DNA of 64,000 bases from IMG/VR virus record IMGVR_UViG_3300042914_002678, one strand, 5' to 3'. A model generated the notes under the pieces. It searched no databases. It was given only the letters and a program-made list of their open reading frames with translations, and was not told where the DNA came from. This DNA is from a virus (Duplodnaviria > Caudoviricetes). Of the stretch, positions 2,940 to 30,785 are shown piece by piece. The first letter of the stretch is position 1; the number at the start of each line of letters is the position of its first letter. A program made the position numbers and the translations under genes.

Positions 2940-3515
2940 ATGAAACATAAACATCATATTGTTCCAAGACATATGGGTGGAACTGACGACCCATCAAATC
3001 TTATTGAACTGACTGTGGAAGAACACGCAGAGGCACACAGAAAGTTATGGGAGCAATATGGTAATATCAAAGATTATTGTGCTTGGAAAGGTTTAGAAGG
3101 AACCATTGGTAAAGAAGAAATCGTAAGGTTGCTGATGGACCCAACTGGAAGAGTTCATACAGAAGAAACCAAACAAAAAATTAGTCAATCACATAAAGGT
3201 AAATTGAAGCATACAGAAGAGAGTAAAGAAAAGTTGAGACAGTTTAGAACTGGTATGAAGTTGAGTGAAGAGCATAAGGCAAAAATATCAAAGAGTTTAG
3301 AAGGTAATACTTATATGGTTGGTAAAAAATTGAGTGATGAGACGAAGAAGAAAATAAGTGAGGCAGGTAAAGGTAATAAGAGAGCATCTGGTCCGCATAA
3401 TATTAGCGAAGAGGCAAAAAGAAATAGAAGTGAAGCAACAAAGGAAAGATGGAGACAATATAGAATATCAAAAGGACTTGACCCAGATAAAACTATTGAT
3501 GCACGATATAGATGA
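2940..3515 (+). CDS. Free-standing HNH homing endonuclease with NUMOD3 DNA-binding repeats
   Basis: N-terminal HHIVPRHMGGTDDPSNLIELTVEEHAEAH; repeats HTEETKQKISQSHKG, HTEESKEKL, LSEEHKAKISKSLEG and LSDETKKKISEAGKG. Confidence 0.88.
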   Translation: MKHKHHIVPRHMGGTDDPSNLIELTVEEHAEAHRKLWEQYGNIKDYCAWKGLEGTIGKEEIVRLLMDPTGRVHTEETKQKISQSHKGKLKHTEESKEKLRQFRTGMKLSEEHKAKISKSLEGNTYMVGKKLSDETKKKISEAGKGNKRASGPHNISEEAKRNRSEATKERWRQYRISKGLDPDKTIDARYR

Positions 3516-28090: not shown

Positions 28091-28304
28091 TTTAGTTTTC
28101 GGTTCATTTCTAACAGTTTTATTTTTTATAGTGGGCATTATAAGTGGTTGGGTAGCAAGGGAATATATGATGAACTATCGGGAAATTCCTAGACCTCATC
28201 CCGAAATGTTTGATTCGCAAGGTAATTTAATACCTGACGAGGTAATTGCATTTAATTTTGAGAACTATTATGACAACGACGACGCAACAGAAGACGAAGA
28301 ATAA
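28077..28304 (+). CDS. Small membrane protein
   Basis: N-terminal hydrophobic helix followed by HPEMFD..G. Confidence 0.75.
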   Translation: MLAVSLVFGSFLTVLFFIVGIISGWVAREYMMNYREIPRPHPEMFDSQGNLIPDEVIAFNFENYYDNDDATEDEE

Positions 28305-28863
28305 CACAACAAAAACAGTTGAATCTCAACTACAAAATCTACCAGCAAATCCTTTTTTGTTTGAAATTTTTAACTTAATTTCGAAACAAAGATCAAATGC
28401 AAAAAAATTAGAAATTTTGAAAAAGTATGAGCACCCTTCAATAAAGGCTGTTTTTATTTGGAATTTTGATGATACTATTATTTCAGTACTTCCTCCTGGA
28501 GAGGTTCCATATTCGAGTGTAGGTGAGCAAAATTCATTTAGTGGAACATTAAGTGAAAAAATTAATGATGCTGTATCTAAAATGAATGAACTTGGCAGCT
28601 CATCTTTAGGAGCAACAGATCAAGGATATTCTACAATACGTAAAGAATATAAAATGTTTTATAATTTTATTAAGGGTGGAAATGATACTTTAAGTTCTCT
28701 TCGTAGAGAAACTATGTTTATTAATATCCTTCAAGGACTTCATCCTCTTGAATCGGAAATTCTTTGTCTTGTAAAAGATAAAAAACTTCAAAATAAATAT
28801 AAAATAACTAAAGAACTTGTCTCTGAAGCTTATCCCGACATTAAATGGGGTGGGCGTTCGTGA
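28270..28863 (+). CDS. Conserved T4-like hypothetical protein
   Basis: RRETMFINILQGLHPLE..IL..KDK motif; start moved to 28270. Confidence 0.75.
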   Translation: MTTTTQQKTKNNTTKTVESQLQNLPANPFLFEIFNLISKQRSNAKKLEILKKYEHPSIKAVFIWNFDDTIISVLPPGEVPYSSVGEQNSFSGTLSEKINDAVSKMNELGSSSLGATDQGYSTIRKEYKMFYNFIKGGNDTLSSLRRETMFINILQGLHPLESEILCLVKDKKLQNKYKITKELVSEAYPDIKWGGRS

Positions 28864-29219
28864 ATAAATTGGAGAATGTAATTAAATCTGCTCAAATGGG
28901 AGGAACTGAAATATCCATGGAATGGACTCCAGAAGAAAAACAAAATTTACCTCCCAGATATGGTTGTCAAATTTTATTAGAAAAAACTACAATTGAACAA
29001 GCAAAAGATTCTTCTTTTCCTAATGACGCATACTTAATTTGGTATATGGTTGATAGTAAAGAATATTTGGATCTTTGTAGAGGAACAAGATCCAAAATTT
29101 TTGATCTTTATTATGATAAATTTGGTCCTAGTGTAATTCAAAAAATCGATTTTGGTTATGGTAGGACAAACCCAAAAATTTGGGGATACCGAGCGCCAGA
29201 GAAGAAAAAAAGAAAATAG
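28845..29219 (+). CDS. Hypothetical protein
   Basis: ORF track. Confidence 0.7.
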   Translation: MGWAFVNKLENVIKSAQMGGTEISMEWTPEEKQNLPPRYGCQILLEKTTIEQAKDSSFPNDAYLIWYMVDSKEYLDLCRGTRSKIFDLYYDKFGPSVIQKIDFGYGRTNPKIWGYRAPEKKKRK

Positions 29220-29220
29220 A

Positions 29221-29547
29221 ATGGGTAAGCATTATCTTCTTAATCTTTATGAATGCTCATTCGTTCATTTAAACGATGAGCATTTTCTTATTGATCTATT
29301 AGAAAACGCTGCGATTGCCAGTGGAGCAACTGTTTGTCAAACTATTTTTAAGAAGTTTGATCCCCAAGGTGTAACGGTAATTTGTTTATTGTCCGAGAGT
29401 CACATTAGTATTCATACCTGGCCAGAAGAAGGTAAAGCTGCTTGTGATGTGTATACCTGTGGAGATTGCAATCCTAAAATTGGATGTGATATTATTATTG
29501 AACAACTTAACTCTTCACGTCACACTTTAAGTTATATTGAACGTTAA
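29221..29547 (+). CDS. speD: S-adenosylmethionine decarboxylase proenzyme
   Basis: MGKH..., GVTVICLLSESHISIHTWPE (autocleavage E-S) and DVYTCG. Confidence 0.92.
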   Translation: MGKHYLLNLYECSFVHLNDEHFLIDLLENAAIASGATVCQTIFKKFDPQGVTVICLLSESHISIHTWPEEGKAACDVYTCGDCNPKIGCDIIIEQLNSSRHTLSYIER

Positions 29548-29623
29548 AACAAAATTCACTTTTAGTTTTCCGGATAGGGGGAAAAATTTTCGGCAAAAAT
29601 TTCAATCCCCTAAGATTTTATAA

Positions 29624-29645
29624 AATTGTAACAAATATTACAATT
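29624..29645. promoter_or_regulatory. Palindromic NtcA-like box
   Basis: AATTGTAA-CAAATA-TTACAATT contains GTA-N8-TAC at 29628-29641. Confidence 0.55.
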
Positions 29646-29650
29646 AAACC

Positions 29651-29679
29651 TTGCTATATAAATGCAATAGGTCTATAAT
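29651..29679 (+). promoter_or_regulatory. Sigma70-type promoter
   Basis: TTGCTA-17-TATAAT. Confidence 0.75.
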
Positions 29680-29685
29680 GACCTT

Positions 29686-29784
29686 ACGTTCATCTGGAAA
29701 TCAGACGGAAGTAAGCCGACGCGGAACGGATCGTTCATTCGCTATTTGCAAATAGCGAACGCAAACGCCGACTGAAGGAACGCT
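29686..29784 (+). ncRNA. Glutamine riboswitch (glnA-family)-like RNA with an expanded or tandem architecture
   Basis: CGTTCA-[TCTG/CAGA]-CGGAAGTA...GAAGGAACG core, with an internal second ATCGTTCA and a TTCGCTATTT/AAATAGCGAA hairpin; lies upstream of DUF4278. Confidence 0.75.
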
Positions 29785-29814
29785 CTTTAACCTAAACCAT
29801 TAAGGAGAACCCTA

Positions 29815-29946
29815 ATGTCAAAAGTAGTATATCGTGGTGTTGAATATGACACCGAAGTGCGTAAGCAAGAGCAAGCGCAGCAACAACCTCAACAATACAA
29901 CGAAACCTATCGCGGTGTTAAGTTTGTAAAGGAGGGGCACAAATGA
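29815..29946 (+). CDS. DUF4278-like peptide, 43 aa
   Basis: MSKVVYRGVEYDTEVRKQEQAQQQPQQYNETYRGVKFVKEGHK* with two YRGV motifs; AAGGAG RBS. Confidence 0.85.
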   Translation: MSKVVYRGVEYDTEVRKQEQAQQQPQQYNETYRGVKFVKEGHK

Positions 29947-30044
29947 ACACTTACTTCGTTCGTTACTTAAAGAAAAAAGCAAAGAAGGAAACCCTTCTCA
30001 AAATTGCACAACTGAATATGGCAAAGCAACCTCAAGTTGCTTGA
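29943..30044 (+). CDS. Small basic peptide, 33 aa
   Basis: MNTYFVRYLKKKAKKETLLKIAQLNMAKQPQVA*; AGGAGG RBS and ATGA overlap. Confidence 0.65.
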   Translation: MNTYFVRYLKKKAKKETLLKIAQLNMAKQPQVA

Positions 30045-30050
30045 TATAAA

Positions 30051-30075
30051 GGAGGGTTGATTCCCTCCTTTTTTC
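30051..30075 (+). terminator. Rho-independent terminator
   Basis: GGAGGG-TTGATT-CCCTCC followed by a T run. Confidence 0.8.
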
Positions 30076-30101
30076 ATAAATATCTAAAAAGATCAAGAAT
30101 A

Positions 30102-30785
30102 ATGAGGACCTATAAAGAATTTGTTTATATTTTAGAGCAACAGACTGGTGCTAATTTAATGTTTACTAAAAGACTCGGAAGTAGTGGACTTCCAGGATCT
30201 ACAGCAGTTACTGGTTCTGTTCAAGGTGGAAGACCTGGAGGGACTCAGGTTTCTGCAACAGGAACTTTGGGTAGGGGGACTGTATCTGGTCAAGGCGATA
30301 AAATAAATCAAGGTATAACTAAAGCTATAGAAAATCCTGGACAAGCAGCAAGTACTTCAACAATTAGAAAAGGTGCTTTTGGATCATTAAGTGCTAATGT
30401 AAGTGGTGGTGGAGCACCGAAACCAGCACCAAAACCAGTACCAAAACCACCTACACAACCAATAAAACCACAATCAGGACAAAAAATACAACCTCCAACA
30501 AAACCAACTCCACCAGTCGTAGAGAAACCATCACAGAAACCAACAGTTCCTAGTCTGACTGCTAGAGGATATACTGACGATAGAAATAATCCTTATCCTG
30601 GTTCTATTGAACGTGCAGGTCAACTAGCATCAGATTCACCTGACCCAGCAATTAGAGCACAAGCTGGACAAGACTATCAAGCAATGAGATCTCTTCAAAC
30701 ACAATTTAAAAATGAAAGACTTACTCAAAGCACTGGCGTTAAACCAGTAGTTAAACGATCTGATGGCACCTACGGAGTTCAATAG
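30102..30785 (+). CDS. Gly/Pro-rich protein, possible internal head protein
   Basis: Begins MRTYKEFVYILE; CATAAATA late-promoter-like site upstream. Confidence 0.65.
   Translation: MRTYKEFVYILEQQTGANLMFTKRLGSSGLPGSTAVTGSVQGGRPGGTQVSATGTLGRGTVSGQGDKINQGITKAIENPGQAASTSTIRKGAFGSLSANVSGGGAPKPAPKPVPKPPTQPIKPQSGQKIQPPTKPTPPVVEKPSQKPTVPSLTARGYTDDRNNPYPGSIERAGQLASDSPDPAIRAQAGQDYQAMRSLQTQFKNERLTQSTGVKPVVKRSDGTYGVQ

Follow-up and report, generated by a model that had tools for sequence, protein, structure and literature searches.

The window is a 64,000-nucleotide stretch of DNA from a T4-like cyanophage sampled in lake water, and the DNA runs that contain the stretch described here come from lake-water metagenomes throughout. 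Positions 29624–30074 form a self-contained cyanomyovirus unit of ~450 nt, which extends from promoter to terminator. In order, this cassette comprises a palindrome, a promoter, two aptamer cores, an anti-SD:SD helix, genes for a 43-aa and a 33-aa peptide, and a terminator. The initial annotation had described a unit at 29624–29946, directly after speD and containing a palindrome, a promoter, a strong RBS and a 43-aa double-YRGV peptide. The position after speD and all of the listed elements were verified, but the extent was too short, as a coupled ORF and a terminator follow to position 30074. The features are as follows.

29221–29547, plus strand: speD (S-adenosylmethionine decarboxylase; Pfam AdoMet_dc, E 4.6e-34), the upstream neighbour of the cassette
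29624–29645, no strand assigned: palindrome AATTGTAACAAATATTACAATT, read from the sequence, with arms AATTGTAA-N6-TTACAATT and an NtcA-type GTA-N8-TAC core at 29628–29641
29651–29679, plus strand: sigma70-type promoter, with -35 TTGCTA (29651–29656), a 17-nt spacer and -10 TATAAT (29674–29679)
29657–29663, plus strand: TATAAAT, a T4 late-promoter-like heptamer by sequence, directly 3′ of the -35 element
29669–29684, plus strand: inverted repeat AGGTC-TATAAT-GACCT, with the -10 element in its loop (fold -6.7 kcal/mol)
29687–29728, plus strand: aptamer core 1 (Rfam Glutamine, RF01739; 21.4 bits, E 0.043)
29729–29731, plus strand: GAU linker; the junction between the cores, GGAACG-GAU-CGUUCA, is invariant, and GAACG/CGUUC could form an alternative local hairpin
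29732–29786, plus strand: aptamer core 2, glnA type (Rfam Glutamine; 33.8 bits, E 1.6e-5; match 29730–29786)
29783–29807, plus strand: expression platform, in which the anti-SD CUCUUUAA (29783–29790) pairs with UUAAGGAG (29800–29807)
29815–29946, plus strand: 43-aa double-YRG peptide, DUF4278-like, with two YRGV motifs (Pfam DUF4278, E 3.7e-4, 21.2 bits)
29943–30044, plus strand: 33-aa basic peptide; its ORF is translationally coupled to the preceding gene by an ATGA overlap
30048–30074, plus strand: intrinsic terminator, with a 9-bp stem AAGGAGGG../..CCCTCCTT and a T run (RNAfold -15.9 kcal/mol)

A thymidylate synthase gene lies downstream of the cassette. Upstream of speD are two conserved phage genes without assigned function, at 28246–28863 (DUF6433, E 1e-36) and 28845–29219 (phrog_485, E 2.6e-23). 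The window also carries tRNAs and, close to one another, a PhotoRC-II RNA at 1439–1532 (86.1 bits) and a group I intron at 2571–2801 (80.6 bits); in cyanophages, this pair is expected near psbA.

Loci homologous to the cassette are found in the cultured phages S-CREM1, S-PM2, P-TIM68, S-CAM7 and S-SRM01, and the order of speD, riboswitch and peptide is identical in S-PM2 (speD-p190-p191). The closest cultured relatives share 84–87% DNA identity with the cassette (83.7% for S-SRM01 and 86.5% for S-CREM1), and both share its double core and anti-SD helix.

The promoter is the best sigma70-like match within positions 29000–30400 in a consensus scan (10/12), its geometry is repeated in relatives, and it predicts a transcription start site (TSS) at ~29686. 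The palindrome is an exact TGTA-N8-TACA, separated by 9 nt from TTGCTA, in agreement with the ~10 nt given in the initial annotation. That annotation had also placed the box away from the canonical -41.5 position, and correspondingly its centre lies at approximately -51.5 from the TSS predicted for the sigma70 promoter, neither at the activating position of -41.5 nor over the -35, -10 or TSS. Inside the window, GTA-N8-TAC is about as frequent as expected by chance (12 found, 10 expected), and so is the 16-mer box pattern (2 found, 1.4 expected). Sequence comparison across relatives shows an enrichment well beyond chance: among 114 unique related promoters, 75 carry the exact box and a further 13 carry it with a single mismatch, as against 0 matches at 3420 background positions. 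The box centre lies 44–64 nt before CGUUCA in these promoters, mostly at 51–53 nt; a smaller set of relatives, S-CREM1 and DSL-LC02 among them, have it ~31–32 nt before CGUUCA, where it overlaps the -35 region.

The conserved box letters in relatives are (T)GTA(A/T)C and TACA(AA), and the spacers between them occur in 53 distinct versions among the 114 unique promoters. Conserved (T)GTA and TAC(A) at N8 with so varied a spacer suggest a protein operator instead of a hairpin, and the pattern fits NtcA rather than CRP. A CRP site was considered and rejected, since the CRP consensus, TGTGA-N6-TCACA, misfits the box. NtcA reports 2-oxoglutarate. Sullivan et al. (2010, PMC3037559) analysed 16 cyanomyovirus genomes, S-PM2 among them, and predicted NtcA sites in every one.

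Two further motifs overlap the promoter. In relatives, the columns right behind the -35 element are conserved as TA(T/A)ATA, and in the window the T4 late-promoter motif, as quoted in PMC3037559, is resembled by TATAAAT. This heptamer may be an overlapping late promoter with a second start at ~29670, near the base of the hairpin around the -10 element. The -10 inverted repeat covaries, such that 88 of 103 unique relatives fold at -3 kcal/mol or below with 58 different 5′ arms, which suggests that the hairpin is transcribed or single-stranded and that transcription may begin upstream of the TSS predicted for the sigma70 promoter. As the -10 element lies inside a covarying hairpin, some transcripts may start further upstream, and the geometry of the box would then change; with a TSS near 29670, the box centre would be at about -35. 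In the host, the Glutamine-II leaders of Prochlorococcus (L135 and L136) have a GTAGCAAC.GCTAC palindrome at the position equivalent to the -10 repeat.

Core 1 starts with CGUUCA at 29687, 8 nt past the -10 element. It consists of CGUUC (29687–29691), a UCUG/CAGA hairpin (29693–29705), CGGAAGUA (29706–29713), AGCCGAC and GGAACG (29723–29728) and, like Glutamine-II RNAs, has no GAAG before GGAACG. Core 2 consists of CGUUC (29732–29736), a 9-bp hairpin (29738–29759), ACGCAAACGCCGACU, GAAGGAACG (29774–29782) and C29783. CGUUC/GAACG P1 helices are present in both cores, through pairing of 29687–29691 with 29724–29728 and of 29732–29736 with 29778–29782. The junction strands differ between the two: GAAGG is present in core 2, where ACGCAAAC replaces the consensus ACGGAAGUA, whereas core 1 has ACGGAAGUA without GAAG.

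The initial annotation had recognised one glnA-type core at the expected TSS; its start at 29687 stands, and two abutting cores were found instead of a single one. The gathering score of the Rfam Glutamine family is 35 bits, and at this threshold no match is obtained in the cassette region. The two cores (33.8 and 21.4 bits) were seen only by a permissive search of a short stretch, and the Downstream-peptide model (Glutamine-II, RF01704; threshold 33 bits) has no match on core 1 in the window. The element is present in all eight cultured relatives, whose 3′ cores score 26–35.6 bits as Glutamine; those of DSL-LC02 (35.6 bits) and P-TIM68 (35.4 bits) exceed the gathering score. The 5′ cores of S-PM2, P-TIM68 and S-SSM4 score 24.6–28.9 bits as Glutamine-II. 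The candidate Glutamine-II P2 helix is only 3–4 bp, with CGA/UCG in the window, CGC/GCG in S-SSM4 and CGAC/GUCG in S-SRM01.

At least 120 viral contigs contain an exact copy of the 17-mer at the junction of the cores, CGGAACGGATCGTTCAT. In the 119 unique junction contexts, the CGUUCA and GGAACG strands were each present twice wherever the downstream sequence sufficed. Both hairpins covary strongly. The number of consecutive pairs is 5.23 for the core 1 hairpin and 6.13 for the core 2 hairpin, against 2.24 and 3.49, respectively, with shuffled partners, and in each case 0 of 1000 shuffles reached the observed value; the comparison for the 29738–29759 hairpin covered 23 unique relatives. Judged from this covariation and conservation, both are real, selected aptamer cores despite their sub-threshold scores in the window, and are putative glutamine binders. 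The same two lines of evidence led to rejection of a decayed aptamer remnant.

Searches of 301 host-family genomes for GGAACG-N2–6-CGTTCA returned matches at the control level. Three exact phage-type junctions in host-family genomes all fall within an unrelated coding gene, and none of 25 sampled host-family loci has riboswitch cores alongside the junction. Support for phage specificity of the double core is limited to this non-detection of the junction beside riboswitch cores in the host-family genomes examined. A search for related loci in genome contigs gave only six, mostly in MAG bins and single-cell assemblies; one of these contigs equals a viral contig in length (189,106 bp), and the loci are likely to be phage DNA rather than host homologues.

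In many relatives (at L002:1205–1460, L004:684–945, L007:497–770 and L008:763–1040, in L051, L025, L054, L112, L114 and L010, and in about 60 further viral contigs), the hairpin of core 1 or core 2 is swapped for an ORF of 50–70 codons. The AUG of these ORFs lies in the 5′ arm, right behind CGUUCA, and the stop codon lies in or beside the 3′ arm or the aptamer core; in one example, ...AUAGACGCAAAAGCCGAC encodes KIDAKAD. The stems that close the ORFs are retained by compensatory changes (UCCUAU/AUAGGA, UCUUAUG/CAUAAGA, UCCGAUG/CAUUGGA and UCCCAUG/CAUGGGA). The window itself has plain hairpins.

The cores are followed by the expression platform. Its anti-SD:SD helix has 8 bp, contributes -5.3 kcal/mol and begins at the base adjoining the 3′ P1 strand of core 2; it is a further element beyond those in the initial annotation. 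The RBS described as strong in the initial annotation corresponds to the SD AAGGAG at 29802–29807, upstream of the ATG at 29815. Freshwater-type relatives all keep an anti-SD helix of 7–8 bp with a loop of 7–11 nt; marine relatives have another, weaker anti-SD arrangement. Covariation was not found in the anti-SD helix among relatives, since both of its arms are invariant.

The ATG of the 43-aa gene is located 33 nt past core 2, which places this gene directly downstream of the aptamer. The ORF at 29815–29946 encodes both of the YRGV motifs given in the initial annotation. At 21.2 bits, the peptide is below the gathering score of DUF4278 (PF14105; 25.3 bits), and 27 of 28 relatives match DUF4278 and no other family (best E 1.2e-5). 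It also matches phrog_5049 (E 3.9e-14) and is related to 327 protein clusters, all of which are unnamed. An AF2 model, for which proteins from annotated records were left out of the alignment, predicts two β-hairpins with YRG at each turn (pLDDT 65). A profile search of solved structures with the 43-aa peptide returned chance-level matches only (E 0.4).

An association between riboswitches and DUF4278 has been described (PMC6212724). DUF4278 forms the N-terminal moiety of IF17, where it is reported to be dispensable for inactivation of glutamine synthetase (GS; PMC6316151). The 43-aa peptide consists of the two YRG hairpins only and is without the IF7-like C-terminal region, which binds GS in IF17. 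Its target could hypothetically be GS or another nitrogen-regulatory protein; because DUF4278 is dispensable for GS inactivation, a GS role for the peptide is put forward as a hypothesis only.

A coupled ORF homologous to the 33-aa peptide follows 43 of 92 unique relatives at an offset of -1. The 33-aa peptide has no Pfam or PHROG match but is similar to the C-terminal half of the 48-aa protein of S-CREM1 (E 0.002). S-CREM1 and two contigs encode fusions that join an N-terminus with one YRG to a C-terminus similar to the 33-aa peptide, which hints at joint action of the 43-aa and 33-aa peptides. Variants of this kind, with the first DUF4278 motif fused to such a C-terminus, lie at L001:1326–1472, L029:2553–2681 and L049:497–625. 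Complex prediction for the pair returned a score of 0.00 with pLDDT < 50 and gave no verdict.

The intrinsic terminator overlaps the terminator part of the Rfam L20_leader alignment. Metatranscriptome contigs from four libraries and three studies lie on positions 29704–29991 with 88–99% likeness, and the cassette or close relatives of it are thus present in RNA libraries. These contigs leave speD and the region beyond ~30013 almost or wholly uncovered and are uninformative on transcript ends; as they show neither strand nor start, their support for the cassette is weak. The loose ends of the RNA-library contigs also carry variants with an ORF in a hairpin.

One of the closest described counterparts is the leader of gifB, which encodes IF17, in Synechocystis sp. 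PCC 6803. Like the phage cassette, it combines an NtcA-type box with a glnA-type aptamer in the 5′ UTR (PMC6212724, PMC6316151), has a short RBS-blocking helix by P1 and precedes a DUF4278 product. In the gifB model (Klahn et al. 2018, PMC6212724), bases immediately 3′ of P1 pair with the RBS and glutamine binding melts this short helix; the position of the window's anti-SD helix next to P1 matches this model. The two systems differ in that the phage has two abutting cores, a box located upstream of the -35 element (approximately -51.5), where that of gifB covers the core promoter (-30.5), a DUF4278-only product of 43 aa without the IF7-like GS-binding C-terminus, and a second, coupled peptide. 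Bolay et al. (2018, PMC6316151) reported that gifA and gifB are NtcA-repressed in the host, with the gifB box at -30.5; the box that overlies the -35 region in a minority of phage relatives resembles this position.

Glutamine-II RNAs (the Downstream-peptide motif, RF01704) precede short DUF4278 genes in marine picocyanobacteria (PMC2864571, PMC6698751), where the direction of switching is ON (PMC6698751). Phage core 1 is similar to them in its CGUUCA, hairpin, CG(G/C)A and GGAACGG without GAAG, followed by a short double-YRG peptide. Host Glutamine-II RNAs score 57–60 bits, whereas phage core 1 scores 21–29 bits, and, unlike the host RNAs, core 1 has a P2 of only 3–4 bp that shares bases with the next core. 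In the host Glutamine-II leaders that were inspected, a palindrome lies right beside CGUUCA, unlike in the phage.

Two glutamine aptamers in one leader are also known from the tandem glnA RNAs of Weinberg et al. (2010, PMC2864571), from which the phage cores differ in lying only 3 nt apart and in having identical P1 strands. The homologous 99-nt element of S-CREM1 has been annotated and published as a glnA riboswitch (PMC9964418). That paper gives the RNA by its Rfam match only and mentions NtcA 0 times; in the accessible passages, only nitrogen-metabolism genes, not the downstream peptide, are named as targets of glnA RNAs. Cyanophage glutamine riboswitches, tandem glnA RNAs, phage NtcA predictions, the link between aptamer and DUF4278, ON switching and NtcA repression of gif genes have thus each been published separately. 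The complete phage cassette of box, double core and two peptides was not described in any paper found by a literature search.

It is proposed that the cassette copies the regulatory logic of host gifB and DUF4278 genes by combining a glutamine-ON switch with an NtcA box, and this is, on balance, the probable explanation. Points against it are the sub-threshold scores of both cores and of the 43-aa peptide, the deviating junction strands, the box position and the chance-level box frequency inside the window, the covarying hairpin around the -10 element, the invariant anti-SD arms and the lack of an IF7-like C-terminus. Both aptamer types act as glutamine-ON switches in the host and precede DUF4278 genes there (PMC6212724, PMC6698751). 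On the pattern of gifB (Klahn 2018, Ren 2015), bound glutamine would stabilise the cores, open the helix attached to P1 and free the SD, which would switch translation ON. NtcA with 2-oxoglutarate would bind the box and, from its effect on host genes, probably represses, modulates or dampens transcription; this direction is favoured over activation by a core promoter near consensus and by the NtcA repression of host gif genes. Glutamine-ON translation together with NtcA repression would mean that peptide synthesis coincides with nitrogen repletion of the infected cell. The dual carbon/nitrogen sensing put forward in the initial annotation is partly supported: its parts are real, are conserved together in many cyanophages and mirror gifB, and its reading as a combined DNA and RNA sensor draws on the analogy with that gene.

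The sign and identity of the box can be read in other ways. NtcA may instead activate from approximately -51.5 in a class I-like manner, so that transcription would rise under nitrogen stress, translation would require glutamine, and the cassette would fire on nitrogen re-supply. In favour of activation, the box is displaced upstream from -41.5 by roughly one turn of the helix, and activation has been associated with NtcA sites located further upstream than -41.5, such as the one at -77.5 in Anabaena gifA (PMC6316151). Sullivan et al. (2010, PMC3037559) also put forward the idea that phages use NtcA sites to take advantage of the host nitrogen-stress response. A core promoter that matches the consensus at 10/12 positions should need no activator, however, host DUF4278/gif genes are repressed by NtcA (PMC6316151), and the box over the -35 region in a minority of relatives, ~31–32 nt before CGUUCA, has a repressing geometry, all of which make activation unlikely. 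It is improbable that the palindrome is no NtcA site at all but serves another CRP-family or phage factor, or is a structural element of DNA or RNA. Its non-canonical position and the chance-level frequency of GTA-N8-TAC inside the window would agree with such a role, as would the second covarying palindrome around the -10 element, which indicates that these promoters favour palindromes. Against it, (T)GTA and TAC(A) at N8, the letters that NtcA contacts, are precisely those conserved, while the spacer varies in 53 versions, the CRP consensus does not fit, and the elements downstream of the box are nitrogen-related.

Within the proposed glutamine switch, the cores are taken to fold side by side as a working model, and a strand-swapped fold is considered either a viable competitor or the state adopted without ligand; such a swap is possible because the cores are 3 nt apart and have identical P1 strands. 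In the nested arrangement, GAACG at 29724–29728 would pair with CGUUC at 29732–29736 in a central, GAU-capped hairpin, and 29687–29691 would pair with the GAACG at 29778–29782. The result would be a complete glnA-type core (ACGGAAGUA plus GAAGG) around a permuted inner core, or else a competing ligand-free state. Both pairings are feasible with four P1 strands of matching sequence, but nearest-neighbour energies favour the nested form (-25.6 vs -20.9 kcal/mol for side-by-side cores), and the minimum free energy fold uses the central local hairpin. Furthermore, only the outer pairing joins a full CGGAAGUA to GAAGG, the junction linker is short and invariant, and the S-CREM1 element is annotated as one 99-nt match of 44 bits (PMC9964418). 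The current Rfam model, on the other hand, gives two separate side-by-side matches, and co-transcriptional order favours earlier closure of core 1. The segments AGCCGAC and GCCGACU, which would flank the inner domain, repeat directly and are not complementary, so that the outer core would be without a P3 helix. Covariation does not decide between the two, because the P1 strands are invariant and pairwise identical and it is therefore silent on which pairs with which. Taken together, the nested fold is a serious contender but less probable than not, and side-by-side cores are retained as the working model.

A bolder and rather unlikely reading is that the RNA is a strand-exchanging double sensor, with the central GAACG/CGUUC hairpin formed in the ligand-free state, two cores or a nested core formed with bound glutamine, and the peptides acting as effectors of host nitrogen assimilation. 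If true, its response would be sharper than that of any described glutamine riboswitch, or have two thresholds, and the DUF4278 peptide and its basic partner would retune host nitrogen assimilation during infection.

For the probable reading, that of a cassette built on gifB/DUF4278 logic, the gain lies in context and breadth and not in principle, as its parts are already known separately. The cassette would be a testable case of a virus that reads two host nitrogen signals at one locus, 2-oxoglutarate via NtcA and glutamine via RNA, and its compact size (~450 nt) suits reporter and in vitro work. Many cyanophages retain short DUF4278 peptides, a group of unassigned role even in Prochlorococcus and marine Synechococcus, and studying infection could therefore help to reveal the role of such peptides.
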